Shown here: positions 889 to 35,324 of the stretch, piece by piece
Numbering within the stretch: the first letter of the stretch is position 1
Layout: the number at the start of each line of letters is the position of its first letter
Assembly (NCBI GenBank): GCA_005809115.1
Contig: SYLK01000433.1
Location: 1-37,036 of the forward strand
Length of the DNA: 37,036 nucleotides
From: Planctomyces sp.
Lineage (GTDB): Bacteria > Planctomycetota > Planctomycetia > Planctomycetales > Planctomycetaceae
Direction of reading: 5' to 3'
The notes under the pieces: generated by a model
Database searches by the model: none
What the model was told of the DNA's origin: nothing
What the model saw: only the letters and a program-made list of their open reading frames with translations
Translations under genes and position numbers: made by a program

Positions 889-1527
889 ATGAGTAAATTT
901 TGGAGTCTGGTTCAATGGACCGCCGGTGGTCTTGCCCCACTTCTGTTGATCGGATCGGCGTCAGCCGCGATCATCGGGGCCACAGTCACCACGACCACGG
1001 CGAATAGCGCCGGGGGCGTGTTCAGCATGCTCGGCCCGCAGGCAGCGGTCGGCGGCGTCGGGATTCCCGTCGCGGGCAAGAACGTGATGGGAATGAATGA
1101 GCGTACAGGTGTCACGCTTGACGGAACAAAGGTTGACAGCCACATCGTGTGGACCAATTTCACGGCGACCAGTGGAATCGTGGCCAAGGTTCAGTTCGCC
1201 AACAAGATTCTGGGGATCATCACCACGAGCCAGGGTGCGCTGAATTACCTGGGTGCAAGCAATACGGTCGTGGGGTTGCTGACCACAACCTATCTCAATG
1301 CCAACAACTGGGGTATGGAAAATGGTTCTGTGTTTGCCGGTCTGACAGAGGGGGTTGTCATCTCGGGAACCAACGAGATCACCTTCACCTCCACAGGAAT
1401 TGGGCCGGATTACGTGCGAGTACTGACCGCCGTACCGGAGCCGGGATCTGTAGCCATTCTGAGTCTCGGAGCAGTTGGTCTGATCGCTGCTGGTTATCGT
1501 CGCCGACGGAACCGAACCACGGTCTAG
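889..1527 (+). CDS. PEP-CTERM sorting domain-containing secreted protein (exosortase substrate)
   Basis: The C-terminus reads VPEPGSVAILSLGAVGLIAAGYRRRRNR, which is the canonical PEP motif, a TM helix and an Arg cluster. The N-terminal signal-like segment is MSKFWSLVQWTAGGLAPLLLIGSASA. GGAGG at 877-881 lies 7 nt before the ATG at 889, so the listed ORF start at 793 is probably too long. The body is Thr/Ser/Gly-rich and has no Cys. Confidence 0.9.
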   Translation: MSKFWSLVQWTAGGLAPLLLIGSASAAIIGATVTTTTANSAGGVFSMLGPQAAVGGVGIPVAGKNVMGMNERTGVTLDGTKVDSHIVWTNFTATSGIVAKVQFANKILGIITTSQGALNYLGASNTVVGLLTTTYLNANNWGMENGSVFAGLTEGVVISGTNEITFTSTGIGPDYVRVLTAVPEPGSVAILSLGAVGLIAAGYRRRRNRTTV

Positions 1528-1574
1528 ATGAGATCGCGGATTTCCGACAAAGCGACTGAAGATGGTCGAATTGG

Positions 1575-1606
1575 ACGGGTGGCCCGAGAGGGTCACCCGT
1601 TTTTTT
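1575..1606 (+). terminator. Rho-independent terminator after the PEP-CTERM gene
   Basis: An 11-bp stem, ACGGGTGGCCC (1575-1585) pairing with GGGTCACCCGT (1590-1600), contains one G-U pair. The loop is GAGA and a T7 run follows (1600-1606). Confidence 0.8.
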
Positions 1607-1846
1607 GCGCCTCGGCGACAGGAAATTGCGATTCCAGGTTGATTCAGTGACTATCCTTCGAATAATCGCAACGTGGGATTCTCTCTGCTCCCGGTACCCG
1701 TTTGACGACCATAAAATCACTGCCTGAGTCGGTCGAGCGTCGCGCAGCTCCGCTCGGACGGTCGGGAATTCCAGTTTCCGGGGCGCGAACTGTTTTTTCA
1801 GGAAACAGCCAGTAGAACTTCTGATCAGAACATTCTCGAGACCAGC

Positions 1847-3502
1847 GTGATGCAGACGGCGGAGATCGTGTCGAAAGTCAGGGGATTTGTGGGCATGCGC
1901 GTGGCCATTCTGTTGCTGCTGGCTGCACACCTGCCCTATGTCGCGGTATACTTCATCAGTCTCTGGCAGCAGCGCACTCATTACCAGTTTTTCCCATTCG
2001 CCGTTGCTGCGTTTATCTGGCTGTTCTCCAGCAGGCGCCGGAAGTCAGGCGAGCAATGGTCAGCATTACCAGTTGCATTGGTTCTGGGCGACCTGTCCTG
2101 CGTTCTGTTGGGCGTCGTGATTCGTTCTCCCTGGCTGTTTGCCTTCGGTATGTTCCTCAGCGTACTCGCCTGGTGCGTCGCATCGCACGAAGAAGGTTAT
2201 CATCGACGTCTGACTTATCTGGCGCTGCTGCCGCTGCTGACAATCAGGCTGCCAGCCAACGGTGACAACCAGATCATCGCCTGGCTGCAGACGGTGACTA
2301 CGGCCGTAGCCAGCAGAATGCTGCAGCGTTTCGGATTCCTGCACTTCCGCGAGGGCAACGTACTGGAATTCCCAGGGAAGCGCTTTCTGGTGGAAGAAGC
2401 CTGCAGCGGAGTACAGTCGCTCTTCACGATTCTGTTCATCGGTGCTCTGGTCATCTGCTGGAATCGCCGGACTCTGACCCATGGAATCATTCTGCTGGCC
2501 AGTGGCGTGGTCTTTGCCGGTGTGATGAATGTCTCGCGCGTTGTCGCGATTGCCGTAGCCTGGGACCAGTATGCGGTGGATCTTTCGACCGGTTATCAGC
2601 ATGACGTGCTGGGATATGTGTGCCTCGGTATTGCGGCCCTGTTGCTGTTGAGTGCCGATTCATTCCTGACCTTTATCACCGATCCCGTACCTGATCTGAA
2701 AAGTGCGGGGACTCTCGGCAATTTCCGAAATCCTCTGATTGCAGCCTGGAACTACCTGTTTTCTGTCTCGCGAGAATCGATCCGCACCGGTCCGGCTCAG
2801 GATTCCTCGAAGCACACTCCTGGTCGGCAGTCAGTGTGGAACATCGGAGCCGGATTGATCTGTGTTACGCTGCTGCTGTTCCAGACGTACGTGCTTCGCG
2901 GTGAAACTCCGAACCGACCACCAGCAGAAATATCCCGCGGGGATACCTTTGATGCGGAGACGCTGCCAGCGACAGTGGCGGGAATGTCCAGATCCCATTA
3001 TCTGGTTGAGGAAGGTTCTTCAGATACGACGACTGCACGCTTCTCAAACGTCTGGCACTACACTTCTGACAACCTCGAGGCGCGCGTCTCGTGTGACCAT
3101 CCGTACTTTGACTGGCAGCTGATTCAGCATTCTTATGTCAGGGAAGGCTGGGAAATTACGGAGTCGTCTGAGCAGGACAGCCCGGACGGGTGGAGTGCCA
3201 CGATGATCCGTATGCGGAACATCGCCGAGAATCGCCACGGTTTTCTGCTGTTCAGCATGTTTGACAGAACTGGAAAAACTCTCGAGCCGGAGAAATCCGC
3301 AGGTGCGGGATCAAGAGTATTTGATCGGCTGTTCCGATCCGGCCCCGATCGATCGGGCAGCATAATGTCTTATCTGGCTCAGACATTTGTCGTGACGGGC
3401 AGCCGAATTCCCGATAACGATGTTCAGAAACTTATCGAACTGCATTTTCAGACACGGAGCCAGCTGCGACTGGCAGCGACGGCGTCGGCAGCCAGTAATT
3501 AG
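1847..3502 (+). CDS. Exosortase family protein fused to a C-terminal EpsI-like domain
   Basis: The polytopic N-terminal half (about aa 1-280) carries the exosortase signature: Cys186 in VEEACSG (TGC at 2402-2404), Arg231 in MNVSRV and His252 in YQHDVLG. An extra TM segment (aa 331-348) is followed by a ~200-aa soluble domain that is paralogous to the free-standing ORF at 33624-34394. The start is GTG at 1847 or ATG at 1850. Confidence 0.85.
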   Translation: MMQTAEIVSKVRGFVGMRVAILLLLAAHLPYVAVYFISLWQQRTHYQFFPFAVAAFIWLFSSRRRKSGEQWSALPVALVLGDLSCVLLGVVIRSPWLFAFGMFLSVLAWCVASHEEGYHRRLTYLALLPLLTIRLPANGDNQIIAWLQTVTTAVASRMLQRFGFLHFREGNVLEFPGKRFLVEEACSGVQSLFTILFIGALVICWNRRTLTHGIILLASGVVFAGVMNVSRVVAIAVAWDQYAVDLSTGYQHDVLGYVCLGIAALLLLSADSFLTFITDPVPDLKSAGTLGNFRNPLIAAWNYLFSVSRESIRTGPAQDSSKHTPGRQSVWNIGAGLICVTLLLFQTYVLRGETPNRPPAEISRGDTFDAETLPATVAGMSRSHYLVEEGSSDTTTARFSNVWHYTSDNLEARVSCDHPYFDWQLIQHSYVREGWEITESSEQDSPDGWSATMIRMRNIAENRHGFLLFSMFDRTGKTLEPEKSAGAGSRVFDRLFRSGPDRSGSIMSYLAQTFVVTGSRIPDNDVQKLIELHFQTRSQLRLAATASAASN

Positions 3503-3610: not shown

Positions 3611-5806
3611 ATGTGCTCATTGAAGTCCCCACAGAACATGGTTCGGGAAACCGGTCAGAGTCTGAATGTACTGCCAGCGTCAGGCGATTACTCGCACGGC
3701 GGGCGCCCCCGACGTGATTCGGTCCTCCCGGCGCTGCTGAATCCCGTGAATCATTTTCGCTGGCTGGCGGGATTTGGGCAGTCCTGGGTCCTGTCTCGCG
3801 ATTACGGGCGACTGACTTCGAGCATCCCATTCTGGATTCTCATCGTTGCGGTCGTCTTTCTGACCTGGCTGCGACATGCGCCGGATGATGAAGTCGTGGC
3901 CTCGTACCAGTCGGCCCTGGAAGCGGCCGTCAACAGCGGCGACGCGGCACGGCAGGAGGTCTATCTGAACGCACTTGTGCAGCTGCGCCCGCGTGACCCT
4001 GAGGTCCGATTTCAGCGGGCAAAGCTCCTGCTCAGTCAGGGTCGGAACGAAGGGATCGACTTCATAAGTCCACTGGTACCCGATGAGACTGACGGGTACG
4101 CGCCAGCCAGAATGTGGCTTGTCGAACAGGCCAGCCGTCCCAATCCCGTGGTTCCGTTGACAGACAGCCAGATTCAGAACCATCTGACCAGGATTCTCAG
4201 CCAGCGACAGGATGACCCTCAGGCACATCGCTGGCTCGCCCGGATTCTTCTGCGGCAATCAGATCTTAAGGGAGCTGAGACGCATCTCGAGCTTGCCGCG
4301 CGGACACTTCCCGATCTGAACGTGGAGCTGGCGAAGCTGAAGGCAGCGCTCCAGCGAGATCCTGCCGAGATCCACAGATATGCCTCGCGTGGGGCCGATG
4401 AGCTGACCGGTCGCCTGCGGACGGACCCCGACAATATGGAATGCCGCCTGGCACTTGGCGAAGCGCTGATCCTTCTGGGGCAGTTCGACGCAGCCAGAGA
4501 ATTGCTGACGGCCAGAGCGGATCTGAGCAGTGATCCGCGACTGCGGCGATCGCTGTCGGACCTCGAAATCGCATCCGCCGACCGACTTCTCGCGGATTCT
4601 CTGCTGAATCAGGATGTGTGCGGCCGGATCCTGCTGAAGGCGCTGGAACTGGACCCGTCAAACCTGACTGCGGTACAGCGCATCGCCGAACTCCATGCTG
4701 CGGGCACTCACTTCCAGCGCAGCGAGATCGAGGCGTCTCTGAATTACTGGCAGCAGCAACTGACGGAACGCCAGGATCAGGAAGGCCCAAGGCGTATCCT
4801 CAGCCAGCTGCTCGCCGTGGTTGGCGCGGCGGCGGAAGCCGCAGAAGTCCTGCGGCCTGTCGTTCTGCGGCGACCGGAACTCAGACTGTCGTTTGCCAGG
4901 CTGCTCACCGACGCCGGCGCAAAGGACGAGGCATCTGCTGTGCTGCAGCTGGTGGAACTGGAGGTCGGTCTCGAGCTGCTGCAGAATCCGGATTCTGTCA
5001 CGGCTGCAGAACAAAAGACCGAATCGCTCATGATCGGCGGTCGCCCGGCAGAAGCTCTGAAGTTCCTGCAGAAACTCACGTCACGAAATCAGGCCGGACG
5101 AATTCCCGAGGCGCCCAGTCTGAAAGCGCTGTTTGGCAGAGCCTCGATTCAGGTGTACGACTCGTTGATTCTTTCAGGTGGCGTCCCTGCGGGGGGATCG
5201 GAAAACGCCCCGCAGCCAGATGAATCAACGCTGCTGCAGCTGCTGGCCGACGCGGTGTCGTCACAGACTTCAGCCGCAGCGGGAATGGATCGACTGGCAC
5301 AACTCGCTTTGTCGCAACATCCTGCCGCGGCACGGGCTGAGGAAATGATCCGGCAGTATCGGCTGACTGAAGCGTCCGAGCAGGAGATGCTGAACCGACT
5401 TGGGACACAGGCGCTGGTCGTCGGTGACTATCAGAAGGCGCGCACCTGTCTGGAACAGGCGAATCAGCTGTCCCGTGGCGGGAATCCCATGACCCTGAAC
5501 AATCTGGCAATCGCCGTTGCACGCGGCGAATCTCGGGATCTTACTGCAGCGCTGGAACTGGCAAATCAGGCTTTGCTGCAGCTTCCCGGGCACCCGGACG
5601 TGCTGTCGACTCGCGGGGAAATCCTGCTGGAATTGGGCCGGTGGCCCGAAGCCATCCAGGATCTTGAGCAGGCGGTTTCGATGCGGCGCGACAGCCGCGA
5701 GGTTCACGAGCTGCTGCTGCGAGCTTATACCGCCACGAACGCCACAGAAAAGGTGGAAGCTCACCAGAGGGAACTCAAACGAATCTCTGAGAACAACCCC
5801 GGATGA
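3611..5806 (+). CDS. TPR-repeat protein with an N-terminal membrane anchor (possible PEP-CTERM-system PrsT-like component)
   Basis: There is a single TM segment (SSIPFWILIVAVVFLTWL), followed by about 650 aa of Ala/Leu/Arg-rich helical repeats. Recognisable TPR units include GDYQKARTCLEQANQL and GRWPEAIQDLEQAVSM. It lies immediately downstream of the exosortase. The start is uncertain (3611 or 3638). Confidence 0.6.
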   Translation: MCSLKSPQNMVRETGQSLNVLPASGDYSHGGRPRRDSVLPALLNPVNHFRWLAGFGQSWVLSRDYGRLTSSIPFWILIVAVVFLTWLRHAPDDEVVASYQSALEAAVNSGDAARQEVYLNALVQLRPRDPEVRFQRAKLLLSQGRNEGIDFISPLVPDETDGYAPARMWLVEQASRPNPVVPLTDSQIQNHLTRILSQRQDDPQAHRWLARILLRQSDLKGAETHLELAARTLPDLNVELAKLKAALQRDPAEIHRYASRGADELTGRLRTDPDNMECRLALGEALILLGQFDAARELLTARADLSSDPRLRRSLSDLEIASADRLLADSLLNQDVCGRILLKALELDPSNLTAVQRIAELHAAGTHFQRSEIEASLNYWQQQLTERQDQEGPRRILSQLLAVVGAAAEAAEVLRPVVLRRPELRLSFARLLTDAGAKDEASAVLQLVELEVGLELLQNPDSVTAAEQKTESLMIGGRPAEALKFLQKLTSRNQAGRIPEAPSLKALFGRASIQVYDSLILSGGVPAGGSENAPQPDESTLLQLLADAVSSQTSAAAGMDRLAQLALSQHPAAARAEEMIRQYRLTEASEQEMLNRLGTQALVVGDYQKARTCLEQANQLSRGGNPMTLNNLAIAVARGESRDLTAALELANQALLQLPGHPDVLSTRGEILLELGRWPEAIQDLEQAVSMRRDSREVHELLLRAYTATNATEKVEAHQRELKRISENNPG

Positions 5807-6090: not shown

Positions 6091-6125
6091 AAACAAAAAA
6101 GCCCGACGCGGCGATGCGTCGGGCT
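6091..6125 (-). terminator. Rho-independent terminator closing the long minus-strand glycan operon
   Basis: On the minus strand, stem GCCCGACGC (6116-6124) pairs with GCGTCGGGC (6101-6109). A T-run follows, read as TTTTTTGTTT (complement of 6091-6100). The site lies 53 nt downstream of the carbamoyltransferase stop codon. Confidence 0.75.
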
Positions 6126-6177
6126 CTGAGGGTTGAACTGCCGAGATTCAGGATTCAGCGTCAGTCGTGCGGTCGCT

Positions 6178-7947
6178 TCACGCCGGAGAAACGCGTTTTT
6201 GAAGGTGTTCGGGGAAATCCGGTCGATGCCGATCGATCAGCACGCCACCAATCGCGATCGCATCCATGTCCGTTCGCAGGAAGCAGCTGATCGCCTCAGC
6301 CGGCGTGCGAACAATCGGCTCGTTTTCGTTCAGTGACGTATTCAGCACGATCGGAACACCTGTTTTCTCGAAGAATCGGCTGATGAGTCGATGATACAGC
6401 GGGTTTGTTTTCATTGAAACAGTCTGCAGTCGTCCGCTGCCGTCTACATGGGTCACAGCCGGAATGATCGCGTGTTTTTCCTTCCGAATCGGGAATACCT
6501 TTTCCATATACGGTGTCGGTTCGCTGATCTCAAACCACTCGCCCGCCTGCTCTTCCAGAATGCTGGGCGCAAATGGACGGAACTTTTCCCGAAACTTGAT
6601 TCGCAGGTTGATGATGTCCCGCATGTCGGTCCGACGAGGATCTGCCAGCAGAGTCCGGTTACCCAGAGCACGCGCTCCGAATTCCATCGCGCCCTGAAAC
6701 CAGCCCACGACTTTTCCCTCGAGCAGCAGATCCGTGGTCCGGTCCACCAGAGCTGCCTCGTCGAGCTGTTCAAACGGGACACCCGCAGCATTGGCGGCGG
6801 CGACGGCTTCGTCTGCCGAAGAACTGCAGCCCCAGTAAGCATGGTTCTGCACGAATCCCCGAGGTTTTCCCAGCAGGCGATTCCACACATAAAAGGCGGC
6901 ACCGAAGGATGTCCCGTTGTCGGCCGCGCCGGCCGGGATATAGACGTTCCTGAAGGGTGTTTCCGTGGTAATCCTGCCATTCGCCACGGAATTCATGGCC
7001 ACACCGCCCGTCATGCAGATGTTCGGGCTCTTCGTCTTTGCATGCAGCCGGCGCAGCAGATGCATGATGATTTCTTCCGTCACGACCTGCAGTGACTTCG
7101 CGATGTTATCGTGCCTGGCCGTCATCGGCTCCTTCGGACGGCGCGCCGGACCGAGCAACTGTTCGAGCTTCGGACTGTGAAATGGCTGCACAATCGGAGC
7201 ACCATCGTTCCATGTCATCCGGAGTCCCTTTCGATGGTGTGTGAAGAAATCCAGGTTCAGCTCAAACGTGTCACCGCGGGGAAAGATCATCCGGCGAAAC
7301 AGATCTGCAAACTCCGGTTCTCCATAAGGCGCCAGCCCCATGACCTTGTATTCGTCACCATAATGAGGAAATCCCAGGTACATGGTCACAGCGCTGTACA
7401 GGAAACCGATGGAATGCGGGTAACAGACGCGATCCAGTTCCTTCCATCCGGTCCCGGATGCCTTCGCTGTCAGCGTACTGGTGAAATCTCCCATCCCGTC
7501 GACCGACAGGACGGCCGCTTCGTCAAACGGAGAAATCAGGAATCCTGCCGCGACATGTGTCTGATGGTGTTCAATACGGTGAAATTGTGCCCTGACGGCG
7601 GACCGTTCAACTCCCACTGCGTCCGCAAACTGCCCGTCGAGCCCAAGCGTTCTCCCCTGACGTCGGAGTCGGTCCAGAATGGCAGACGCTGACGGCCAGT
7701 GAGTTGCCACGAAGCCGAGGCGTCTCAGCAGATTCGCTCGCGGATTAAAAGAAATTGCCACGTGATCCACGTCCGCCGCTGTGAGCCCCGCCTGCTGCAG
7801 ACACCAGCGAATCGACTGGGAAGGAAATCCGGCCCAGTGCTTGATTCGATTGAATCGCTCTTCCTCGACTGCGGCAATCAACTGGCCGTCAACCACCAGA
7901 GCCGCCGAGGCATCACCATGATAGGCATTCAGCCCGAGTATGTTCAT
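6178..7947 (-). CDS. Carbamoyltransferase, NodU/CmcH family
   Basis: The N-terminus MNILGLNAYHGDASAALVVDGQLIAAVEEERFNRIKHWAGFP is typical of the family. At 589 aa the protein has the expected full length. It is the last gene of the operon. Confidence 0.9.
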   Translation of the reverse strand: MNILGLNAYHGDASAALVVDGQLIAAVEEERFNRIKHWAGFPSQSIRWCLQQAGLTAADVDHVAISFNPRANLLRRLGFVATHWPSASAILDRLRRQGRTLGLDGQFADAVGVERSAVRAQFHRIEHHQTHVAAGFLISPFDEAAVLSVDGMGDFTSTLTAKASGTGWKELDRVCYPHSIGFLYSAVTMYLGFPHYGDEYKVMGLAPYGEPEFADLFRRMIFPRGDTFELNLDFFTHHRKGLRMTWNDGAPIVQPFHSPKLEQLLGPARRPKEPMTARHDNIAKSLQVVTEEIIMHLLRRLHAKTKSPNICMTGGVAMNSVANGRITTETPFRNVYIPAGAADNGTSFGAAFYVWNRLLGKPRGFVQNHAYWGCSSSADEAVAAANAAGVPFEQLDEAALVDRTTDLLLEGKVVGWFQGAMEFGARALGNRTLLADPRRTDMRDIINLRIKFREKFRPFAPSILEEQAGEWFEISEPTPYMEKVFPIRKEKHAIIPAVTHVDGSGRLQTVSMKTNPLYHRLISRFFEKTGVPIVLNTSLNENEPIVRTPAEAISCFLRTDMDAIAIGGVLIDRHRPDFPEHLQKRVSPA

Positions 7948-8001
7948 TTTCAGATCCGAGCGTCGTATCTGCCAGGGAACCAGGAATTCCAGTCAGGACA
8001 G

Positions 8002-9234
8002 TCAGGGAACAGCAGCGCGTGCAGCTGGAGGGGCCACACCAAAGAACATATTCGTGTACCCGCTGAGCAGATTGTGCTGTTCAAAAAATTCATGTGCCAG
8101 GGACAGGGCGCCCTGCTGCAACCGACGATATTCCGGGTGGTTCATTCCGATGATGGCATTCATAGCGGAGACAAACTGATCTGGCGCATCCAGAGAGAGA
8201 TCCCATCCGGCGTTCCTGGCCTGCAGATCCCGCCACATCGTTCGATCGCTGATGATCACGGGCGTTCCGACAGCCAGAGATTCGAAAATTGCGTGCCCGA
8301 AATTCTCTCCCAGGGTGGGCAGGATCATGGCGTCGGCCTGGATCAGAAATTCACGAACCTCAGACTCAGATTTGGCACCCACAAACTCCACCCGCACCGA
8401 TTCCGGCAATTCCCGTACCGCATTCAGACATCGCTGATGATAGGTCGTATCCTCCACGGGTCCCACGATCGTCAGCTGACAGTCCCCCTGCACGCGACCT
8501 GACAATTCAATCAACCACAGGATGTTCTTGGTTTCGTGGACGCGGCCGACAGAACAAAACCGGGCAGGACAAGCTTTTTCGGTCCTGTCGGACAGCTTGC
8601 TGACGGGAAGACACGGCACGTTGGGAATGGCGGTAACGGGGACGGCTCCGAATGCCGCATGAATCTCGGCAGCCTCCTCAGGCGAAGTAGCATGGAATGA
8701 AACGTGCCGCAGGACCCCACAGGTTCTCAGGAACCAGATGAGCGGCCGTTTCTTCCAGCCCTTCTGCTGCATCGCAGCGGGCTTCAGCATTCCCCGCGGG
8801 GCCAGAAATATTCGGATCCGTCGCCTGGTCAGCCGCAACCAGAGCAGGGGCCACAACGTCCCGGCAAGGGAGAACATACTGTTGAGGTAAACCGCATGCG
8901 GGCGGAATCGTCGCAGCATAAACACAAACGCAGCGCACCGACGGAAACCTGAGCTGCAGTAGCGCACGCGAGCCAGCCCGCGCCAGTTAAACCAGCGGTC
9001 TGAGGGAACCGCATCGTAGGACTGGTCGCTGCCAAGGTCTCTGTCAGAGGTGATGATTGCCACATCCGCTGATTTGCCGAGCAACACCGCAAGATTGGCA
9101 CAGCTGCGGATCGGTCCTCCGGCCCGCACTCCCGGATCGAACCAGTCGACACAGACCAGCAGACGTGGCCTTATGACGGCCACCTGGGCAGGTTCAACGG
9201 CGGACTCGTGCTCACGCTCAGCTCTGGAATTCAT
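8002..9234 (-). CDS. Glycosyltransferase, GT-B fold (GT4-like)
   Basis: C-terminal sugar-donor motif LPTLGENFGHAIFESLAVGTPVIISD. An ATGA overlap (9231-9234) couples it to the upstream gene. Confidence 0.8.
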   Translation of the reverse strand: MNSRAEREHESAVEPAQVAVIRPRLLVCVDWFDPGVRAGGPIRSCANLAVLLGKSADVAIITSDRDLGSDQSYDAVPSDRWFNWRGLARVRYCSSGFRRCAAFVFMLRRFRPHAVYLNSMFSLAGTLWPLLWLRLTRRRIRIFLAPRGMLKPAAMQQKGWKKRPLIWFLRTCGVLRHVSFHATSPEEAAEIHAAFGAVPVTAIPNVPCLPVSKLSDRTEKACPARFCSVGRVHETKNILWLIELSGRVQGDCQLTIVGPVEDTTYHQRCLNAVRELPESVRVEFVGAKSESEVREFLIQADAMILPTLGENFGHAIFESLAVGTPVIISDRTMWRDLQARNAGWDLSLDAPDQFVSAMNAIIGMNHPEYRRLQQGALSLAHEFFEQHNLLSGYTNMFFGVAPPAARAAVP

Positions 9235-11878: not shown

Positions 11879-11916
11879 CGTGAGTCCGCCACAGCATCAT
11901 TTGCGGAACGGCGCAA

Positions 11917-24974: not shown

Positions 24975-24982
24975 CCGTTCGG

Positions 24983-25894: not shown

Positions 25895-25924
25895 TCTCGA
25901 AGCAACACGGCCACGGAGGTTTTG

Positions 25925-26899: not shown

Positions 26900-26946
26900 A
26901 ACGGGCAGCGGGCAATAAGCAGTGGGCAGTGAATCGGACCGGGATG

Positions 26947-27744
26947 TCAGATTCCGGATTCCGGGTTGTGGCCGGCGTGGAATTCCCTGAGCGCGGCGTT
27001 GAGTTCATCCGATGTGCCGATGTCAATGTAACGACCATCCGGCACGGGAAATCCTCGCACGTTCATCCCGTCGGCAAGAGCGGCGTTGAACACATCGCCC
27101 AGCACAGTTTCCCGGCCGCCAGCGTCATGCTGTGAAAGAAACGCATCCAGCAGGTTCGTGAATCGCACGGACCAGCAGCACGTACCCCACATATACTCCA
27201 GGGACGAGTTCTGCGGCTTGTCAACTGTGCTGACGACTCGACTGTCAGCATCGATCTCGACCATGCCAAACTTCTGCGGGCGATCGGTCGCAAAGAGTCC
27301 CAGGGACAGATCGGCACCAGACTGAAAGTGCTGCTCGACCAGTGTCTTCAGCGCGGTTACAGGCCGAATAATCGTGTCCGGCATGCCAAAGACAACGGTT
27401 GCGTCTCCAATCCAGGGACGTGCCAGATTTATCGCCGAAGGCATTCCGTCGAGTCGCTCCTGATAGAGGTAAGCAATCTCAAGGCCGAAACGACTGCCGT
27501 CGCCGTAATACTCGACCACGTCCTGTTTGCCCTGACCGACAATCAGCAGGATTCGCCGGACTCCTGCCTGTTTCATGTTTTCCAGAATGTACTGACTCAC
27601 CACCTTTGGCCGTTTCTCGGCCCTGCCCTTCACGATGTAGTCCTGAAAACCAATCGGAAACAACTCCTTGGCGCAGGGAAAAGGCGCCAGGCGCGTCCCT
27701 TTACCAGCAGCCGGAATAATTCCCACCGTGTCTGCATTCTTCAT
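26947..27744 (-). CDS. Sugar-1-phosphate nucleotidyltransferase (NTP-transferase family)
   Basis: N-terminal GIIPAAGKGTRLAPFPCAKELFPIG, the G-x-G-T-R-x-x-P...K-E-L motif of sugar nucleotidylyltransferases. An ATGA overlap (27741-27744) couples it to the upstream BNR protein gene. The sugar specificity is unknown. Confidence 0.8.
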   Translation of the reverse strand: MKNADTVGIIPAAGKGTRLAPFPCAKELFPIGFQDYIVKGRAEKRPKVVSQYILENMKQAGVRRILLIVGQGKQDVVEYYGDGSRFGLEIAYLYQERLDGMPSAINLARPWIGDATVVFGMPDTIIRPVTALKTLVEQHFQSGADLSLGLFATDRPQKFGMVEIDADSRVVSTVDKPQNSSLEYMWGTCCWSVRFTNLLDAFLSQHDAGGRETVLGDVFNAALADGMNVRGFPVPDGRYIDIGTSDELNAALREFHAGHNPESGI

Positions 27745-29042
27745 GGAGACAAATGCTCCGGCAAAAAGGACGCTCGCAGAAATGTATCAAACCGCTGATA
27801 ACCGGGATAAGCGCGGACACCCACGCAGATGACCTCTTTCCCGCCAGTGTTTCTCACTGCCATCGGACGCACCAGGTCATGTGCTGTGCGGCTCGAAAGT
27901 CGCGGTTCCGCGGCTTTCTGCCATTGCTGATCAATGAACGAAAACTCAGCAATCTCATACCGGCCTTCCGCGTTCTTCAGGGAGACGAGCACCACAGGCG
28001 GACTGACTGAAACGATACAGGCTCCGGCCGGGTAGCAGACAAGACCCTGACGGGCGATTTCCTGTGTGGTCCAGGTGTTGGTGGTTGAGTCCCGGTGCGA
28101 CCAGCAGACGACGGAGTCGGCGGAATCATAGTCAATCCAGATCGCGGCGAGCTGACCAGCGGGATCACGCTGCACATCCCACACGCGGGTTTCACGATCG
28201 CCCTCGGTCCGCATGACGGCAGTCAGTCCGTGAAAAAGAACCGGAAGTGTGAGGCGGCTTCCTGTTCCATCCTGCCAGGTAACGCCGCTGTCCGAACTCC
28301 GGATATGGTAGACGTCGCGAACGCGGCCCTCAACCGCCACCCCAAACAGCAGATCGACATCCGCCGTCGTTTCGTCTCCGACTGACAGTGAATAGATCCA
28401 GTCTCCGCTGATTCCTTCCCCGGGCGCAGCGTCCACCAGAACCGTTTCATCGGAAAATGAACGGCCGTGATCCTGTGACATTCGAAAACAGTACGGACGC
28501 GCACCGTCGGAATCCGTCCGGCGATAGAACAGGAGCAGCCGATCGTTTGTCGTGCAGAGGACAGGATAGGTGCTTTCTCCGTCGCAGACAACGACGGGAT
28601 CTAACCATGACGTAATGTCTCCGCTGGTCGCCGTTATGCGACTGAACATCGGGGAGTTATGCAGGCTGTAGAACACTCGCACTCGCCCCGCGTCCGGTCC
28701 GCGTGCGGGAAGATATAAAGCGGGCGGGCCATGATCGTCCAGATAATGATACTGGGCTACGACAGCAGCGAATGCCTCCCGCTCAGAAATCTGTCCAACG
28801 ACAACCTCACGACGCGATGTCATCCAGCCGGCGTAGATATTCGCCCCCGAACGGACTGCCGGCGGCGTGTTGTACCACAGGAGATTGCCTCGACCCCACA
28901 GCTCGTCGAATGAGGGTGCCGTGGTGCGCAACACGTATCCCACGGGAACCAGGATCGCAGCTGCGATGAGAACACCAGCGGTAATTCGTTTCGTATTCAT
29001 GTTCAGGAGTTCTGACACGCCCTGGCGAATCCGGGACAGCAC
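27741..29042 (-). CDS. Membrane-anchored Asp-box (BNR) repeat protein, sialidase-like beta-propeller candidate
   Basis: Two Asp-boxes are present: SQDHGRSF (nt 28455-28478) and the perfect S-x-D-x-G-x-T-W match SSDSGVTW (nt 28275-28298). An N-terminal TM helix reads ITAGVLIAAAILVPVGYVL. The likely start is the ATG at 29000 (MNTKRI). Confidence 0.55.
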   Translation of the reverse strand: MLSRIRQGVSELLNMNTKRITAGVLIAAAILVPVGYVLRTTAPSFDELWGRGNLLWYNTPPAVRSGANIYAGWMTSRREVVVGQISEREAFAAVVAQYHYLDDHGPPALYLPARGPDAGRVRVFYSLHNSPMFSRITATSGDITSWLDPVVVCDGESTYPVLCTTNDRLLLFYRRTDSDGARPYCFRMSQDHGRSFSDETVLVDAAPGEGISGDWIYSLSVGDETTADVDLLFGVAVEGRVRDVYHIRSSDSGVTWQDGTGSRLTLPVLFHGLTAVMRTEGDRETRVWDVQRDPAGQLAAIWIDYDSADSVVCWSHRDSTTNTWTTQEIARQGLVCYPAGACIVSVSPPVVLVSLKNAEGRYEIAEFSFIDQQWQKAAEPRLSSRTAHDLVRPMAVRNTGGKEVICVGVRAYPGYQRFDTFLRASFLPEHLSP

Positions 29043-29152
29043 CTCCTGACAGCGTTGTCGGCGGAGTCCTGCGAACCAGTCCCAACGCTGTCCTCAACTC
29101 CAGGGCCAACTCCTCTGCTGCGACTGGCTCAGTTCTGAGGGCCGTTCGCCTG

Positions 29153-30346
29153 TCAGGGTGCACTCCGGAGTCGAAGCAGCCAGTCGGCTGCCGTGTCGGC
29201 AATCCACGCGAATGAAGTACACGTGCCGAGGCTGCGGGCAGCCTGATGTGGCTGATAGACGAGCAGCGGCACGTATTCCCGCGTATGATCGGTTCCCGGG
29301 ACCGTCGGGTCGCACCCGTGATCACCGGTAATCACGAGCAAGTCATCGTCTGTCAGGTGATTCAGCATCTCGGGAATTGCCCGATCAATTTCCTCCAGCG
29401 CACGACCGTATCCCACCGGATCATTGCGATGACCGTAGAGAGCGTCTGTATCAACAAGGTTTGTAAAGATCAACTGGCATTCGGATTCATCCGTGGTCGT
29501 CCGCGATTCTCGCAGTGACGTCAGGTCCAGCTGATTTCGAATCGCCTGCAGAGTGAGCTGCAGCCCTTCAGCATTTCCATTGGTATGTACGGAATGCGTG
29601 ATTCCCGATCCCACGAAGATGTCGACAATCTTCCCGATCCCCAGCACCAGTCCACCCCTGTCTGCGATTCGATTCAGAACGGTGGGTTTCGGAGGTGTCA
29701 CGGCCAGATCACGCCGAGCTCCGGAAAGTCGCTTCAGGCCCATCTCTGTGCGACAATACGGCCTGGCGATGACGCGGCTGACGTTGTAATCGTCGGTCAG
29801 CAGCCCTCGAGCGATCTGGCACCAGCCGTACAGCGTTTCGAGCGGGACCACATCCGTGTTGCACGCGACCTGAAAGACACTGTCCGCACTGGTATAGACG
29901 ATGGGAAATCCCGTCGCGACGTGCCGCGGATCGAAGCGTTCGATGATCTCGGTCCCCGACGCCGGACAATTCCCGAGAATTCCCCCGCAGTCAGTTTCGG
30001 CGACAAATCGGTCCAGCAGCTCGGCTGGAAAGCCGTGCGGATACACCTGAAAGGGCTGATCCAGCACCAGGCCCGCAATTTCCCAGTGCCCTGTCGTCGT
30101 ATCCTTGCCTTTCGAGACTTCCATCATCCGTCCATAGCTGGCAAGTGGCTGAGCGACCGGAGGTACTCCCTGAACCTCGGTGATATTTCCCAGGCCGAGT
30201 GCTCCCAGATGCGGCAGACGCAGTCCCTGGCTGGCCCTTGCGACGTTACCCAGCGTGTTGCATTCCGGAATATCTCCGTAGTCCGCGGCATCCGGCAGCG
30301 CCCCGACGCCCAGGGCGTCAATCACGATGATGATCGCTCGTCGCAT
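29153..30346 (-). CDS. deoB: Phosphopentomutase
   Basis: It is collinear with E. coli DeoB from the first residues. Shared motifs include MRRAIIIVIDALGVGA, SKGKDTTTGHWEIAG, IVYTSADSVFQVAC, RVIARP and ITGDHGCDPT...GTDHTREYVPLLVY. The start at ATG 30346 fits the family N-terminus, while the listed start at 30478 adds 44 atypical residues. Confidence 0.9.
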   Translation of the reverse strand: MRRAIIIVIDALGVGALPDAADYGDIPECNTLGNVARASQGLRLPHLGALGLGNITEVQGVPPVAQPLASYGRMMEVSKGKDTTTGHWEIAGLVLDQPFQVYPHGFPAELLDRFVAETDCGGILGNCPASGTEIIERFDPRHVATGFPIVYTSADSVFQVACNTDVVPLETLYGWCQIARGLLTDDYNVSRVIARPYCRTEMGLKRLSGARRDLAVTPPKPTVLNRIADRGGLVLGIGKIVDIFVGSGITHSVHTNGNAEGLQLTLQAIRNQLDLTSLRESRTTTDESECQLIFTNLVDTDALYGHRNDPVGYGRALEEIDRAIPEMLNHLTDDDLLVITGDHGCDPTVPGTDHTREYVPLLVYQPHQAARSLGTCTSFAWIADTAADWLLRLRSAP

Positions 30347-30485
30347 CTTCAGATGACCCCCATTCGCGCCCTGGCAGCGCCTGTGACTGTCGATACCGCT
30401 GTCCTGCCGGTCCCCGGTCCGATTCGCATGACGGCCGATTCGCTTGACGGCCGGGAAAAGGGCACCTTCCGGCTGCAACCTGCGG

Positions 30486-31499
30486 CTACTGCTGCAGAGG
30501 CGCAGATGTCGGCAACTTCCACAGCAGCGAGATGGCCTGAAATATCTTCAGCTGCGATTCCACCCAGCTTCGCACAAAGGGGAATCGGATCAATCGTGAT
30601 CGACACGCCAGAACCGCTCTGCTCAGCCGCCTGAATTCTAAACCATTCAGCACGCCTGCCTCATGACTCCACTTCAACAGGTCGTTTGCCAGGTCGAAAT
30701 GTCGACCGCGCGCAGCACCGTAAACCGTTTCGCCCACCATATACCGCGCCAGACGCTTCTGACCCGATTTTCCGCTGGCTTCAAGGAGCTGAACGGCATC
30801 ACGGATAACCCGACAGCGGCTTTCCACCTTCGGGCGTGCATAAAATCCTGAGCGACTGAGACTGGAATGTTCTCGGTAGTACAGATCCGCGGGAAGATCA
30901 AAGCAGACTTTCGCACAGTAATCCTGAATCCAGGCCCGCAGAAACAGATCGATATCCTGCCAGATCGCCAGATGTTCTGCCCACATGCCGATTCTCAGGA
31001 AAGACGATTTCCTCCAGATGCAGCCGGTCCCCTGACAAATTGCGTCCTGATGAAACTGACGACTCAGCAGATCACGATCCGTGGCCACATTCCACCATCG
31101 GGCAGCGTCACCTGAGACACTGTGAAAGATCTCGCACGGAAAGACTGCCAGGTCGAGTTCTGGATGCTGCTGCATCACCTGCACGCGCTGTGACAGGCAG
31201 TGTGGAGCGAGCAGATCGTCGGTATCGAGAAAGATCAGATACTGGCCGGAACTGTGCTCGACTCCGATGTTGCGACAGGTACAGGCGCCTTTCGGTTCTC
31301 GATCACGCTCCAGCAAAGTCACGCGTGACTCAGCCGCTATGACATCGCGCATCTGCCGGAGACACGCGGCATCACTCCCGTCGTCAACGATGATCTGCTC
31401 CCAGTCCGGGTAGTCCTGCGCGCGGAGCGAAGCGAGTGTCTCCGGATACAGATCGCCACGGTTAAAACTCGGTGTGATGATCGAAATGACGGCAGCCAC
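30486..31499 (-). CDS. Glycosyltransferase family 2
   Basis: ISIITPSFNRGDLYPETLASLRAQDYPDWEQIIVDDGSD and the FLDTDD motif. Confidence 0.85.
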   Translation of the reverse strand: MAAVISIITPSFNRGDLYPETLASLRAQDYPDWEQIIVDDGSDAACLRQMRDVIAAESRVTLLERDREPKGACTCRNIGVEHSSGQYLIFLDTDDLLAPHCLSQRVQVMQQHPELDLAVFPCEIFHSVSGDAARWWNVATDRDLLSRQFHQDAICQGTGCIWRKSSFLRIGMWAEHLAIWQDIDLFLRAWIQDYCAKVCFDLPADLYYREHSSLSRSGFYARPKVESRCRVIRDAVQLLEASGKSGQKRLARYMVGETVYGAARGRHFDLANDLLKWSHEAGVLNGLEFRRLSRAVLACRSRLIRFPFVRSWVESQLKIFQAISLLWKLPTSAPLQQ

Positions 31500-31502
31500 G
31501 TG

Positions 31503-32186
31503 TCAGACCCAGAGCTTTCGCGCGCGGTAGGCTGAGAAGTCTGCAGCCCTCAGATAGCCGACGTACTCCTGGCTCAGGCAACGACGCTGACACTTTTCAG
31601 GATCCAGTCTTCGGATCAGGCGGGCCGGGTTTCCCGCCACGACGCAGTTTCCGTCCGGAAACGACTTCGTGACAATACTTCCGGCACCGACCACCGTAAA
31701 ATCACCCAGCCGCACGCCCGGCAAAATGACCGCATTCATACCGATCCAGCAATAGTCACCAATCACAACACTCTGCGTCTTATCGTGCTGGTCCGGGTCT
31801 TCAGGCAGGTGATTCGCACTGACGATTCCCACATTCTGTGCGATCCGCGTATAGTCACCGATGAAGACCTGACCGAGTCCCTGAATATAGCACCCTGGTT
31901 CATAGCCGGGACACGTATCGATCCCCACCACGATATTCTGTGGCTGGTTGATCTTGCTCGTAAAATGTACAGGCCAGTAGGCCTTTCGATTGATTCCCAG
32001 AACTTTCTGAATCAGAAATCCGGACAATGTCCTGGGCACTGGTGATTCACGCGTATTCTTCACGAAATGAAGGGGCGGCAGCCGGATGAGGGCCTCATAG
32101 AGACATCGCGCGCTGTTCCGGAACAGGAACCGGGCTGCCCGCCAGGGCAGCGTATGCAGCGGCCAGACCCGCTCAGAGAGTCGCAT
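31503..32186 (-). CDS. Left-handed beta-helix O-acetyltransferase (paralog B)
   Basis: WIGMNAVILPGVRLGDFTVVGAGSIVTKSFPDGNCVVAGNPARL. The protein aligns with paralog A along its whole length. The start is uncertain, with candidate Met codons at 32186, 32207, 32213 and 32261, all of which overlap the wzt 3' end. Confidence 0.75.
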   Translation of the reverse strand: MRLSERVWPLHTLPWRAARFLFRNSARCLYEALIRLPPLHFVKNTRESPVPRTLSGFLIQKVLGINRKAYWPVHFTSKINQPQNIVVGIDTCPGYEPGCYIQGLGQVFIGDYTRIAQNVGIVSANHLPEDPDQHDKTQSVVIGDYCWIGMNAVILPGVRLGDFTVVGAGSIVTKSFPDGNCVVAGNPARLIRRLDPEKCQRRCLSQEYVGYLRAADFSAYRARKLWV

Positions 32187-33525
32187 ATCGGGTAATACTG
32201 CTGTCATTGTCATGCATCGGCGAGTAATCAATCTGCCAGTCAAATCGAGGATGGATGGCACCGGCAGGACGGGCTGAATGTGTCAGGCCCAGATGATTCA
32301 CAGTCAGCTCATCCACGTAAAACGCAACGTCATGGCCTGCCACAAGGGAGGCTGTCAGCGGAATGTCGATGTCCACACTGACCACATACTTGCCAATGTT
32401 CAGGAAGTGTGCCGGAATAGTGACAGAACTCACGTAGCTTCCCGGTGCTCGCATCCGGTCCGCCGCCTGATGGTTGAAGTCACTTGTCGAGAGTACCAGA
32501 CTGCCGTCCTGCGCCGACAGATTCACGGAAACCCTGAGACTTCGGATCGAATTCACTATCGTGTAGCGAACTTCCACGCGCAGTGAGTCAGACGTCGACA
32601 GTCGCGTATCACAACGGCCCAGCGCGTCCACAACTGATACAGCATTCAGCCGCACGCCGCCCTTTGACGGTTCCTGCCCGGCCGGAAACGTCAGAATTCG
32701 TTCAGCCCCGCTGCCGGCCGCGAGATACCTGTCAATGATGTCAGAGGTGACCCCGGCGGAATCCAGAGTCCCATTGACCAGCAGGCAGCTCTGCCGACAC
32801 AGTCGGCGAATCGACGCCATGTTATGACTCACGAACAGGATCGTTCGCCCGGATTCACGACTGACGTCTTCCATCTTGCCGATGCAGCGAGTCTGAAAAT
32901 CGGCGTCCCCGACGGCCAGGACTTCATCGACGATCAGGATCTCCGGTTCCAGGTGAGCTGCCACCGCAAATGCCAGCCGCACATACATTCCGGATGAATA
33001 TCGCTTCACCGGTGTGTCAATGTATTTCGCACAGCCGGAAAACTCCACGATCTCATCAAATCGCCGACGAATATCGGACCGAGTCATCCCCAGAATCGCA
33101 CCGTTCAGATAGATATTCTCGCGCCCGGTCAATTCGGGGTGAAATCCTGTTCCGACTTCCAGCAGGCTCGCCATTCGCCCGCGAACACGGATTCGCCCGG
33201 TTGTCGGCGCGGTGACTCGAGACAGCAGTTTCAGCAAAGTCGATTTGCCGGAACCATTCCGGCCTATGATTCCCAGGATCTGACCCTGCTCCACCTGCAG
33301 ATTGATGTCCTTCAGCGCCCAGACGTAGTCAGACACCGCGGAGCGAGAGGCGGGAGGCAAAGAAGCGACGGTACGATCATTCACCTGCCACACGCGGGCA
33401 AATGGATCGTCCTTCCCCCGGAATCTGGCCCACCAGCGGTTGAGATCGTGCGCAATAGTGCCCGTGCCCACCTGACCCAGGCGGTACATCTTGGAGACAT
33501 TTTCAATGGAGATCGCGGTGCTCAT
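32173..33525 (-). CDS. wzt: Polysaccharide ABC exporter ATP-binding protein with a C-terminal glycan-binding-type extension
   Basis: Walker A GRNGSGKST, signature YSSGMYVRLAFAVA and Walker B ILIVDEVLAVGD. A further ~190 aa of beta-rich sequence (RLNAVSVVD...VEVRYTI...VSVNL...) occupies the position of the Wzt C-terminal domain. Confidence 0.9.
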   Translation of the reverse strand: MSTAISIENVSKMYRLGQVGTGTIAHDLNRWWARFRGKDDPFARVWQVNDRTVASLPPASRSAVSDYVWALKDINLQVEQGQILGIIGRNGSGKSTLLKLLSRVTAPTTGRIRVRGRMASLLEVGTGFHPELTGRENIYLNGAILGMTRSDIRRRFDEIVEFSGCAKYIDTPVKRYSSGMYVRLAFAVAAHLEPEILIVDEVLAVGDADFQTRCIGKMEDVSRESGRTILFVSHNMASIRRLCRQSCLLVNGTLDSAGVTSDIIDRYLAAGSGAERILTFPAGQEPSKGGVRLNAVSVVDALGRCDTRLSTSDSLRVEVRYTIVNSIRSLRVSVNLSAQDGSLVLSTSDFNHQAADRMRAPGSYVSSVTIPAHFLNIGKYVVSVDIDIPLTASLVAGHDVAFYVDELTVNHLGLTHSARPAGAIHPRFDWQIDYSPMHDNDSSITRYATL

Positions 33526-33555: not shown

Positions 33556-33623
33556 ATTCCCAAAGGATCCCCGAGCGGAAAGGCATCATTCTCCGCCGGG
33601 ATTCCTGGCCAAGACCGGAGTGC

Positions 33624-34394
33624 TCATTCACGGACTGAAACGGACACGTTGCCGACGGACCTGGCCGTCATCCAGCAGGCACGCAGGATATCGCGGGTCG
33701 CGCCGTGCAGTTCCCGCAGCTTCTGCAGCGCCTCTTCGGACAGAGGACCGCGATGAGGCAACAGCACCTGACACTGCAGGCATCGGGCGGACTCGTTGAA
33801 ACCAGTATCCGACAATCGCGACGCGCCGCCGGTCAGACGCCCCAGGAGCCCCCCGTCCTGCGTTTCGTCGCCGGCGGGAGGTACCACGACAGCCCCGAGT
33901 CCATTGAAGATCGAATACAGCAGGGTCGCTTCTTCACCCGTGGGCTTCTGCAGATGCGCCAGCACATACTGCCAGTTTTCACCGGCCTCGGCGGACGACA
34001 GTGAATGTATTGACCGCCGCGTCACTTTCCAGCCTGTGGCTGTATAGCACTGCGTCAGTTCGTGCCAGCCCATAAAACCAACCTGATCGAACGCCACCTG
34101 AACCTGCAGCGAATCTCTGCGGACTGACCAGGAATGACTCCAGCCAAACATCCCGGGCACATCGGCCTGCTGCGGCTCAATGAAGGACACGACAGTCCAG
34201 CCATTGATCGTGTCCGGCAGCACCGTGCGAGACAACCGAATGTCCCCCCGCCCCGGACCCGCACAGGTTGCACTCCCGGCGACACCGAAATACCGCGCCG
34301 CGGCCTGGGCCGCGATCATCAGCCCCACAATCAGGAGAATGACGCGGGTGGAGCCTCCGGATGAATTCGCAGCCTCAGACATCGTCGACACCAT
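33624..34394 (-). CDS. EpsI-family-like (exosortase-associated) protein with an N-terminal membrane anchor
   Basis: The TM anchor is RVILLIVGLMIAAQAAA. It is followed by LPDTINGW and WHELTQCYTATGW, which fits the H-x4-C-x4-GW pattern I associate with EpsI proteins. The protein is clearly paralogous to aa ~370-540 of the exosortase ORF. Confidence 0.55.
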   Translation of the reverse strand: MVSTMSEAANSSGGSTRVILLIVGLMIAAQAAARYFGVAGSATCAGPGRGDIRLSRTVLPDTINGWTVVSFIEPQQADVPGMFGWSHSWSVRRDSLQVQVAFDQVGFMGWHELTQCYTATGWKVTRRSIHSLSSAEAGENWQYVLAHLQKPTGEEATLLYSIFNGLGAVVVPPAGDETQDGGLLGRLTGGASRLSDTGFNESARCLQCQVLLPHRGPLSEEALQKLRELHGATRDILRACWMTARSVGNVSVSVRE

Positions 34395-34406
34395 CCGCGA
34401 TTCCGG

Positions 34407-35324
34407 TCAGACATGATCCATAAATGTGCGTTCGACGCGATTGAAGATCACGATTCCCGCCGCCAGTACGACAAGTGTCACAAGGATGCTGTAGCCAAGA
34501 TGCAGTGGACTGTACTCGCCGGCGCCCAGAAATCCATATCGAAAGGTCTCCACAATCGGCGTCAGCGGGTTGGCGTTCACAATCAGGCGATATTTTTCGG
34601 GCAATGCCGAAGCCGGATAGATCACCGGCGTGGCATACATTGCCAGCTGAACGGCAAACTGCAGCAGAAAACGCAGATCACGATACTTGGTCGTGAGAGA
34701 CGAAATGATCATGCCCAGACCCAGCGACAGACCGCCCATCAGCAGCACAAGCACCGGAAACAGTGCCGCCACGGCATTCACGCGAATCCCTGTCCCTGAA
34801 AACGCATACCATCCACAGAAACACAGAAACAGTGCAAACTGAACTCCGAACCGCAGCAGATTCGACACGACAATCGACAGCGGAATGATTACGCGCGGAA
34901 AGTAGACTTTCCCGAAGATGTTCGCATTCTGAATGAACGTCTCCGACGTCTTCGTCAGACACTCGGCGAAATAGCTCCAGCACGTGATGCCGCTCAGGTA
35001 GAACAGCACCTGCGGCAGTCCGTCGGTCGGAATACTGGCGATCTGGCCAAATACGATAGTGAATACAATCGTGGTCAGGACGGGCTGAATCAGGAACCAC
35101 AGCGGACCCAGAATTGTCTGCTTGTACAGAGCCACGAAATCGCGATAAACCAGCAGCAGCAGCAGGTCCCGGTACCTCCAGATGTCCCGAACGGGAATCG
35201 AAAATAGCCCGGCCTGAGGTTCAATCTCCAGCGTCCAGTCCCCCGGATCTTCCGCGTTCAGAGCAGAATTCGATCCCTGCGCATCTGGCTCCAGTGTCTC
35301 CGGTAATTGTCTGATTGTGGACAT
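34407..35324 (-). CDS. wzm: Polysaccharide ABC exporter permease (ABC-2 type)
   Basis: DIWRYRDLLLLLVYRDFVALYKQTILGPLWFLIQPVLTTIVFTIVFG, followed by six TM segments. This is the typical Wzm/TagG/KpsM architecture. Confidence 0.85.
   Translation of the reverse strand: MSTIRQLPETLEPDAQGSNSALNAEDPGDWTLEIEPQAGLFSIPVRDIWRYRDLLLLLVYRDFVALYKQTILGPLWFLIQPVLTTIVFTIVFGQIASIPTDGLPQVLFYLSGITCWSYFAECLTKTSETFIQNANIFGKVYFPRVIIPLSIVVSNLLRFGVQFALFLCFCGWYAFSGTGIRVNAVAALFPVLVLLMGGLSLGLGMIISSLTTKYRDLRFLLQFAVQLAMYATPVIYPASALPEKYRLIVNANPLTPIVETFRYGFLGAGEYSPLHLGYSILVTLVVLAAGIVIFNRVERTFMDHV

Follow-up and report, generated by a model that had tools for sequence, protein, structure and literature searches.

Why should a gene for a relative of an exosortase accessory domain lie between the two genes of an ABC exporter for surface glycans? 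The question is raised by a 37,036-nucleotide (nt) stretch of a Planctomyces sp. genome (contig SYLK01000433.1 of GenBank assembly GCA_005809115.1; hereafter the window, meaning that whole stretch), in which a plus-strand unit of three genes, encoding a PEP-CTERM protein, an exosortase and a TPR protein, faces a minus-strand array of 27 co-directional genes running from wzm to a carbamoyltransferase gene (Table 1). An earlier note on this DNA had described the 256-amino acid (aa) protein encoded between wzm and wzt, here called X, as an EpsI-like paralog of the domain fused to the exosortase, and had proposed that one such module docks on the exosortase and the other on the Wzm/Wzt exporter. 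The genes on which it built (PEP-CTERM, exosortase with its C-terminal domain, TPR, wzm, wzt and the 256-aa gene) were all recovered by profile hidden Markov model (HMM) searches where it had placed them, and its interpretation is partly supported. X belongs to an old, separate and all-free clade, encoded where a conserved core gives way to a variable region of glycan genes, usually beside wzm/wzt and, in the subclade of the window, between them. The anatomy of the locus and its conserved contexts are described here as observed, and from them we infer a coupling between the glycan and the exosortase.

The free domain of X matches the model of the exosortase U C-terminal domain (NF033780) with 139 bits, above the 89.8 bits reached by aa 377-543 of the exosortase itself (cut-off 40). 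The two domains can also be aligned directly: BLASTP pairs aa 49-238 of X with aa 364-541 of the exosortase at 22% identity (E = 2e-9), and hhalign comparison of the X clade with two fused-domain clades gives a probability of 100% with E-values of 8e-43 and 5e-49. X is a true paralog of the C-terminal domain of the exosortase, as had been supposed. Unlike exosortase U, with which it shares the domain model, X lacks the exosortase core, with no match to PF09721 and no exosortase match at E <= 0.01. The description as EpsI-like stands only at the level of the superfamily, the precise family being that of the exosortase U C-terminal domain. Against the EpsI/DUF3485 model PF11984, X scores 17.4 bits, below the cut-off of 26.1, and it has no match to TIGR02914 at E <= 0.01; the fused domain matches neither of these EpsI models. 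PF11984 is nevertheless the only Pfam family matched by eight of 11 X relatives, always below threshold (best E-value 3.5e-5), and a superfamily-level relation of X to EpsI/DUF3485 is likely. At least two free X-type proteins of 263-264 aa (P0293 and P0178; proteins labelled P and loci labelled L are the relatives used in our comparisons) have been named 'exosortase U' by NCBI, which is a misnomer because they are without the enzyme core; the name is probably triggered by the domain-level model NF033780.

A profile search of 1.84 billion representative proteins identified 1272 relatives at E <= 1e-3, led by ~62 proteins that are without exception free and 129-326 aa long (mostly ~250 aa), the fused forms of 540-645 aa ranking below them. 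When clustered at 50% identity, X is kept in over 60 clusters. A neighbour-joining tree of the domain sequences, built without bootstrap, places 66 free proteins, X among them, in one pure clade and the window's fused domain in another, made up of 43 fused proteins only. Classification by HMMs, done independently of the tree, agrees with it: 34 of 34 free open reading frames (ORFs) from glycan loci are X-type. The X clade is distinct from free copies encoded beside exosortases: in L056, where an unfused exosortase has a free 213-aa ORF directly next to it, the HMM classification makes this ORF fused-type, and on that ground it looks like a recent split from the exosortase. Among 206 domain-bearing proteins examined, the sole fusion partner of the domain is the exosortase, and all genome matches of the domain are in Planctomycetota.

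The residues that are invariant across the superfamily (W89, D103, W110, H111, L113, C116, Y117, Q207 and Q209 in X) are all kept by X. In the fused domain of the window, three of the invariant residues are replaced (H by Q424, C by S429 and Q by L510, encoded within 3113-3376), at positions that are 98%, 93% and 93% conserved, respectively, within its own fused clade; X keeps all three. Because the fused copy has lost these residues, X may be the functional copy in this genome. AlphaFold2 models of X reached a mean confidence (pLDDT) of 73 at full length, and of 85 with a pTM of 0.84 for the domain alone, which is predicted as a seven-stranded antiparallel sheet accompanied by two helices, a short one that bears the WHELTxCY motif and a long one at the C-terminus. 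The best weak structural matches, to SciW/DUF1795, Apa, PsbP and START-like folds, had TM-scores of 0.42 or below and no fold was assigned from them; a sequence search of the PDB with the X profile found no match.

We gathered 25 distinct X loci, 20 of them with enough sequence to judge the presence of wzm; flanks of each relative locus were read over up to 10 kb, and statements on neighbouring genes hold within that reach. A wzm gene on the strand of X and no more than 10 kb away is present in 16 of these 20 informative loci. In the window X is separated from wzm and wzt by gaps of 12 and 98 nt, and the wzm-X-wzt triplet recurs in the independent relatives L001, L063, L064 and L065 (X 38-61% identical). 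More distant relatives have the order X-wzm-wzt, with X and wzm adjacent in L002, L007, L009, L011, L070 and L072 and wzt, where the contig is long enough to include it, another 0.8-3.9 kb along, so that X directly adjoins wzm in 11 distinct loci in all. In L008, L066, L069, L073 and L074, a GT4 gene and others stand between X and wzm-wzt, at an X-wzm distance of 2-9 kb. To our knowledge, the Wzm/Wzt systems described so far are two-component systems with no protein of a single transmembrane segment encoded between the subunits. The permease and the ATPase of the window are encoded together as expected of a Wzm/Wzt ABC exporter, and their assignment is to be read at this level: the best NCBIfam matches of the permease are the Wzm and KpsM models, both under cut-off, the ATPase scores 180 bits against the galactan Wzt model, and the galactan, KpsM and TagH equivalog models lie far under their cut-offs. 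The C-terminal carbohydrate-binding domain Wzt_C (PF14524), which marks cap-recognising exporters, gives 27.4 bits (gathering score 30.4).

An exclusive tie of X to ABC exporters is rejected by L083-L089, where the 5.7-10 kb of sequence read past X relatives of 29-31% identity, on their downstream side, contain no wzm. Together with L006, the distinct loci of this kind are L083, L086 and L088. Wzy_C and PCP/BY-kinase-like genes lie upstream of X in L086-L089. In L083-L085 and L088-L089, X is directly followed by a gene for a planctomycete-specific PSD/PSCyt-domain protein of ~1020-1050 aa, and in L083 and L084 this is followed in turn by one for an HXXSHH (DUF1552) protein.

The steadiest neighbour of X is instead a block that lies beyond the right end of the window, on the same strand, and comprises a PCP/BY-kinase-like gene, a GT4 gene and three genes for nucleoside diphosphate-sugar epimerases/dehydratases. 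This brings the setting closer to a classical exopolysaccharide (EPS) locus, from which it had been thought to differ. The block precedes X in at least 17 loci, in which the third epimerase is 58-80% identical and X 29-45%. Since the block precedes X and X diverges far more than the epimerase, X marks the border between the conserved core and the variable glycan region, diverging like the variable genes. L001 has wzm-X-wzt without the epimerase core, and the triplet can therefore travel as a unit. Between wzm and the epimerase core just outside the window lies a toxin-antitoxin-like insert (35335-36704), and homologs of it (up to 60-65% identity) occur at or inside the core block in L006, L010, L011, L014, L066/L067, L075 and L076; in L014 the homolog lies beside a fused exosortase U.

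The PEP-CTERM gene of the plus-strand module, the sole convincing ORF of this kind in the window, encodes a protein that passes both PF07589 (22.4 bits; gathering score 20.7) and TIGR02595 (20.4 bits; cut-off 16), the C-terminal sequence being VPEPGSVAILSLGAVGLIAAGYRRRR; the mature part consists of 15% Gly and 15% Thr. The exosortase comprises a core (aa ~20-280), an extra transmembrane helix (~aa 330-350) and the XrtU_C domain (aa ~355-545). The core matches PF09721 with 125 bits and TIGR02602 with 126 bits (cut-off 105.55), scores 53.1 bits against the exosortase/archaeosortase signature TIGR04178 (cut-off 23) and shows the ACSG (Cys), NVSR (Arg) and QHD (His) motifs. With both the exosortase and the C-terminal domain models matched, the 551-aa protein is an exosortase U (XrtU), the name that NCBI gives to its relatives.

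The third gene of this unit encodes a generic TPR protein, which scores 77.5 bits against the model of PrsT, the TPR lipoprotein of the XrtA system (TIGR02917), where 312 are needed, though genes for TPR proteins are conserved next to exosortases of this class. Such a gene follows that of the exosortase in L025, L028, L029, L038, L045, L052, L056, L057, L061, L077 and L082, among others. Exosortase and TPR regions are joined in single chains in P0081, P0119, P0121 and P0123 (565-964 aa; core 46-65% identical to that of the window), and these fusions support a physical partnership of the exosortase with the neighbouring TPR protein. L056, from the metagenome-assembled genome ABC1.50 (contig JAWKTZ010000011.1, 174.7-195.8 kb), holds three exosortase-TPR modules in tandem. 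The exosortase is fused in one of them, unfused with a free accessory gene next to it in another, and unfused without an accessory in the remaining one, so that a single genome has all three architectures.

Links between exosortases and the glycan genes are found in other genomes, although they do not take the form of a fixed neighbourhood of the two units seen in the window. In some Pirellulaceae, full fused XrtU genes lie directly beside orthologs of the core epimerases, in the order XrtU-Epi1-Epi2 in L014 and L018 and Epi3-XrtU in L043. Homologs of four genes from the distal end of the array, those for the carbamoyltransferase (CarbT), GT4a, the 461-aa membrane protein (unk461) and GT4e, recur beside exosortase U or X elsewhere. 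In L045 a single co-directional array contains an unk461-like gene, GT4e (50% identity), CarbT (62%, overlapping XrtU by 4 nt), XrtU and TPR, and in L052 another contains unk461 (39%), GT4e (57%), GT4a (55%), a PEP-CTERM gene, XrtU and TPR; in L086, X is followed by CarbT (38%), unk461 (39%) and GT4e (46%). In ABC1.50, a single contig carries X and, ~45 kb away, the three exosortase-TPR modules; there, the exosortase orthologous to the window's XrtU is without any C-terminal domain. The linkage of the two units in related genomes, which the earlier note had made a test of its idea, holds for the distal glycan genes in L045 and L052 but does not extend to an exosortase within 10 kb of X.

Taken together, we give an even chance to the reading that a conserved planctomycetal supercluster for surface polysaccharides has its glycan-specific part in the window, facing an exosortase U module, with X as the trans-acting link between them. 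On this reading X, whose gene belongs to the glycan cluster, would do in trans what the accessory domain does as part of an exosortase. Working at the membrane, it would engage a lipid-linked glycan supplied by Wzm/Wzt (in other lineages, by a different exporter) and would link this glycan to the exosortase-dependent processing of PEP-CTERM proteins. Several observations weigh against this reading. At none of the 25 distinct X loci does an exosortase occur within 10 kb, and in the window itself the distance is 30 kb. The closest orthologs of the window's XrtU (L059 and L061) and an unfused relative (L057) have unrelated genes and no glycan cluster within 10 kb, which rejects, for these nearest orthologs, the idea that the XrtU module always adjoins one. 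The identity of X does not track the similarity of Wzm, X being 31-37% identical while Wzm scores range over 63-312 bits. The separation of the free and fused clades comes from a neighbour-joining tree without bootstrap. Structure searches of the PDB with both models of X gave no match at E < 1e-3, and therefore no biochemical activity can be assigned from the fold. Finally, in a crude hydropathy and positive-inside count, Lys and Arg beside the transmembrane helix of X number 2.0 and 2.2 on its two sides, and the number of transmembrane segments in XrtU varies in the same analysis, which does not fix the membrane side of the domain.

The docking model of the earlier note would make X a structural accessory subunit of Wzm/Wzt and the fused copy its counterpart on the exosortase, the two machines being coupled through paralogous adaptors. 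The wzm-X-wzt order in the window and in L001, L063, L064 and L065, the mobility of the L001 triplet as a unit without the epimerase core and the direct adjacency of the X and wzm genes in 11 distinct loci speak for this model. It is weakened because some X loci have no wzm nearby (L083-L089 and L006, with Wzy_C and PCP genes in its place in L086-L089) and because X does not co-diverge with Wzm, the distance of the relatives to the window's X being about the same whichever Wzm lineage adjoins; in L008, L066, L069, L073 and L074, moreover, other genes separate the two by 2-9 kb. We regard it as unlikely. X could also be an enzyme of glycan biogenesis, or a protein that binds the polymer or its lipid carrier, acting through its invariant Asp, His and Cys independently of any exosortase and sharing with the fused domain its ancestry alone. 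Its constant neighbours are indeed polysaccharide genes and never an exosortase, D103, H111 and C116 are invariant across the superfamily, and it diverges like genes of the variable region (29-37% identity beside epimerases of ~78%). The restriction of the domain's fusions to exosortases, the fused XrtU genes adjoining the same epimerase genes in Pirellulaceae and the occurrence, in other genomes, of distal cluster genes co-directional with XrtU and PEP-CTERM genes within a single array argue against such independence, which seems to us improbable.

Chance could have brought an ordinary O-antigen/EPS cluster next to an ordinary PEP-CTERM module, with X a drifting remnant of an exosortase gene; consistent with this, the convergent adjacency is not kept in the nearest XrtU orthologs, and genes of mobile type (the Uma2 fragment and the AbiEii-like genes) show that the cluster has been rearranged. 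However, X is kept in its many clusters with a transmembrane helix of its own and ten invariant residues, its context is kept across 25 distinct loci, and L045 and L052 again have homologs of distal glycan genes next to XrtU. The explanation by chance is already weakened by these conservation data and we consider it very improbable. A more specific version of the trans-acting link, drawn by analogy with type IX secretion, would have the XrtU_C/EpsI-type domain present a lipid-linked glycan as the acceptor of the exosortase reaction, with X as the glycan-specific version in trans, placed at the head of every variable glycan cassette, and the PEP-CTERM proteins covalently attached to whatever polymer that cassette sends out through Wzm/Wzt; we think it decidedly unlikely. 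Covalent linkage of PEP-CTERM proteins to polysaccharide is itself only a proposal (PMC12188702). In type IX secretion, cargo loses its C-terminal sorting signal and becomes attached to a glycolipid, the anionic lipopolysaccharide, via an amino sugar of the Wbp pathway (PMC7468200), and the window also encodes a trio of WbpB/D/E-like enzymes. The likeness is one of analogy only: the enzymes and signals are unrelated and no attachment chemistry is known for exosortases.

The glycan array, of which X forms part, had been taken for a unit of about 25 genes that starts at wzm. It is co-directional throughout, with a widest intergenic gap of ~270 nt, but numbers 27 genes and does not begin at wzm, upstream of which three further small co-directional genes follow and same-strand genes continue on the source contig past the right end of the window. 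An ORF on the opposite strand (35853-36533, plus, 226 aa) overlaps the called minus-strand genes there, has no family match and is probably not a gene; at the other end, the contig boundary truncates a DUF1501 gene, whose remaining 3' portion is the plus-strand ORF at 20-478. The terminator proposed at 6091-6125 was found at 6098-6127, with a T-run for the minus strand only. A second, equally strong terminator-like hairpin lies ~35 nt before the start codon of the GFO oxidoreductase gene and may split the array into two transcription units. The region downstream of wzm-X-wzt in L001 shows synteny with the proximal part, from wzm to hisF, and the distal part (GFO to the carbamoyltransferase) holds the genes that recur beside XrtU.

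Ten glycosyltransferases are encoded in the array, seven of them GT4 and three GT2. Judged by its genes, the glycan is predicted to contain sugars of acetamidino, diamino and carbamoylated type. The membrane protein unk461 matches no Pfam or NCBIfam family even at E = 5 and may, as a guess, be an unrecognised polymerase or ligase (Wzy/WaaL-like). The Uma2 ORF covers positions 3-82 of the 172 of the profile and looks like a fragment; in L073 and L076, a Uma2 fragment also lies just upstream of X. The BNR_4 fold is in an unusual place amid a biosynthetic operon and has no counterpart in the otherwise syntenic L001.

Table 1. Features of the window by position
Feature	Position	Strand	Basis and remarks
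PEP-CTERM substrate protein	889-1527	+	212 aa; signal peptide, Gly/Thr-rich body, VPEP, hydrophobic helix, RRRR C-terminus
Exosortase U (XrtU)	1847-3502	+	551 aa; exosortase core, extra transmembrane helix, C-terminal XrtU_C domain
Membrane-anchored TPR protein	3611-5806	+	731 aa; TPR Pfam matches
Intrinsic terminator	6098-6127	-	12-bp stem, 8 GC pairs, T-run; 51 nt past the carbamoyltransferase stop codon
Carbamoyltransferase (CarbT)	6178-7947	-	Pfam/NCBIfam
GT4a	8002-9234	-	Pfam/NCBIfam
461-aa polytopic membrane protein (unk461)	9231-10616	-	~ten transmembrane segments, large loop; no family match
GT4b-d, FkbM methyltransferase, GT4e (15555-16607)	end of the 6178-16607 distal block	-	Pfam/NCBIfam
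GT4f, DegT aminotransferase, hexapeptide acyltransferase, GFO oxidoreductase (WbpE/D/B-like amino-sugar trio)	16725-20900	-	Pfam
Partial Uma2-family endonuclease ORF	20917-21435	-	Partial match to the Uma2 profile
Second terminator-like hairpin	20936-20963	-	12-bp stem, T-run; within the end of the Uma2 ORF
HisF-like, HisH-like, WbuX N-acetyl-sugar amidotransferase	within 21445-32261	-	WbuX 271 bits vs 203
Hexapeptide transferases, three GT2, sugar nucleotidyltransferase	within 21445-32261	-	Pfam/NCBIfam
Metalloenzyme-superfamily mutase-like protein	within 21445-32261	-	Pfam/NCBIfam
BNR_4 (sialidase-like beta-propeller) protein	27741-29042	-	Pfam; N-terminal hydrophobic segment
Wzt-type ABC ATPase	32173-33525	-	PF00005 ABC_tran 80.8 bits; weak C-terminal Wzt_C-like region
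X	33624-34394	-	NF033780; single N-terminal transmembrane helix (aa ~15-35), free XrtU_C/EpsI-superfamily domain
Wzm-type ABC-2 permease	34407-35324	-	PF01061 67 bits
AbiEii-like nucleotidyltransferase	35335-35907	-	Toxin-antitoxin-like insert
76-aa ORF	35904-36134	-	Toxin-antitoxin-like insert
NTP_transf_5-like protein	36213-36704	-	Toxin-antitoxin-like insert

The occurrence of exosortases in polysaccharide loci, with an EpsI-type domain fused to them or encoded next to them, has been known since 2006 (PMC1569441). As in the EpsH/EpsI system (Haft et al. 2006, PMC1569441; TIGR02602, TIGR02914, PF11984), the accessory domain is either fused or a small separate protein, lies among polysaccharide genes and has no known function, and the substrates are rich in residues typical of glycoproteins. 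Unlike EpsI, X and the fused domain stay below the curated EpsI thresholds and belong to the exosortase U C-domain family, and X is neither fused with nor next to an exosortase but heads the variable glycan region, mostly beside wzm/wzt. The exporter resembles the Wzm/Wzt systems for O-antigen and galactan (PMC6379404, PMC9445017, PMC13018209) in its ABC-2 permease and its ATPase with a C-terminal extension, and the accompanying cluster of glycosyltransferases and possible chain-end modifiers (methyltransferase, carbamoyltransferase) is likewise shared. Our literature searches brought up no account of exosortase U, of a link between exosortases and Wzm/Wzt, or of an EpsI structure. The arrangement is a real, undescribed form of the known association of exosortases with polysaccharides. 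What is new is the separate free clade, encoded at a constant position where the variable glycan genes start, often within the gene pair of the ABC exporter and away from exosortases, and the architecture of the supercluster, with a conserved core followed by variable genes.

The comparison defines a conserved planctomycetal polysaccharide supercluster and exposes an annotation error, namely the naming of free X proteins as exosortase U. The EpsI-type accessory domain has had no known function since 2006 (PMC1569441), and how exosortases act once the PEP-CTERM signal has been cut is a standing question. A conserved, fast-diverging free paralog of such a domain at the head of the variable glycan genes gives a concrete handle on this question and a testable lead on how sorted proteins may be linked with surface sugars.

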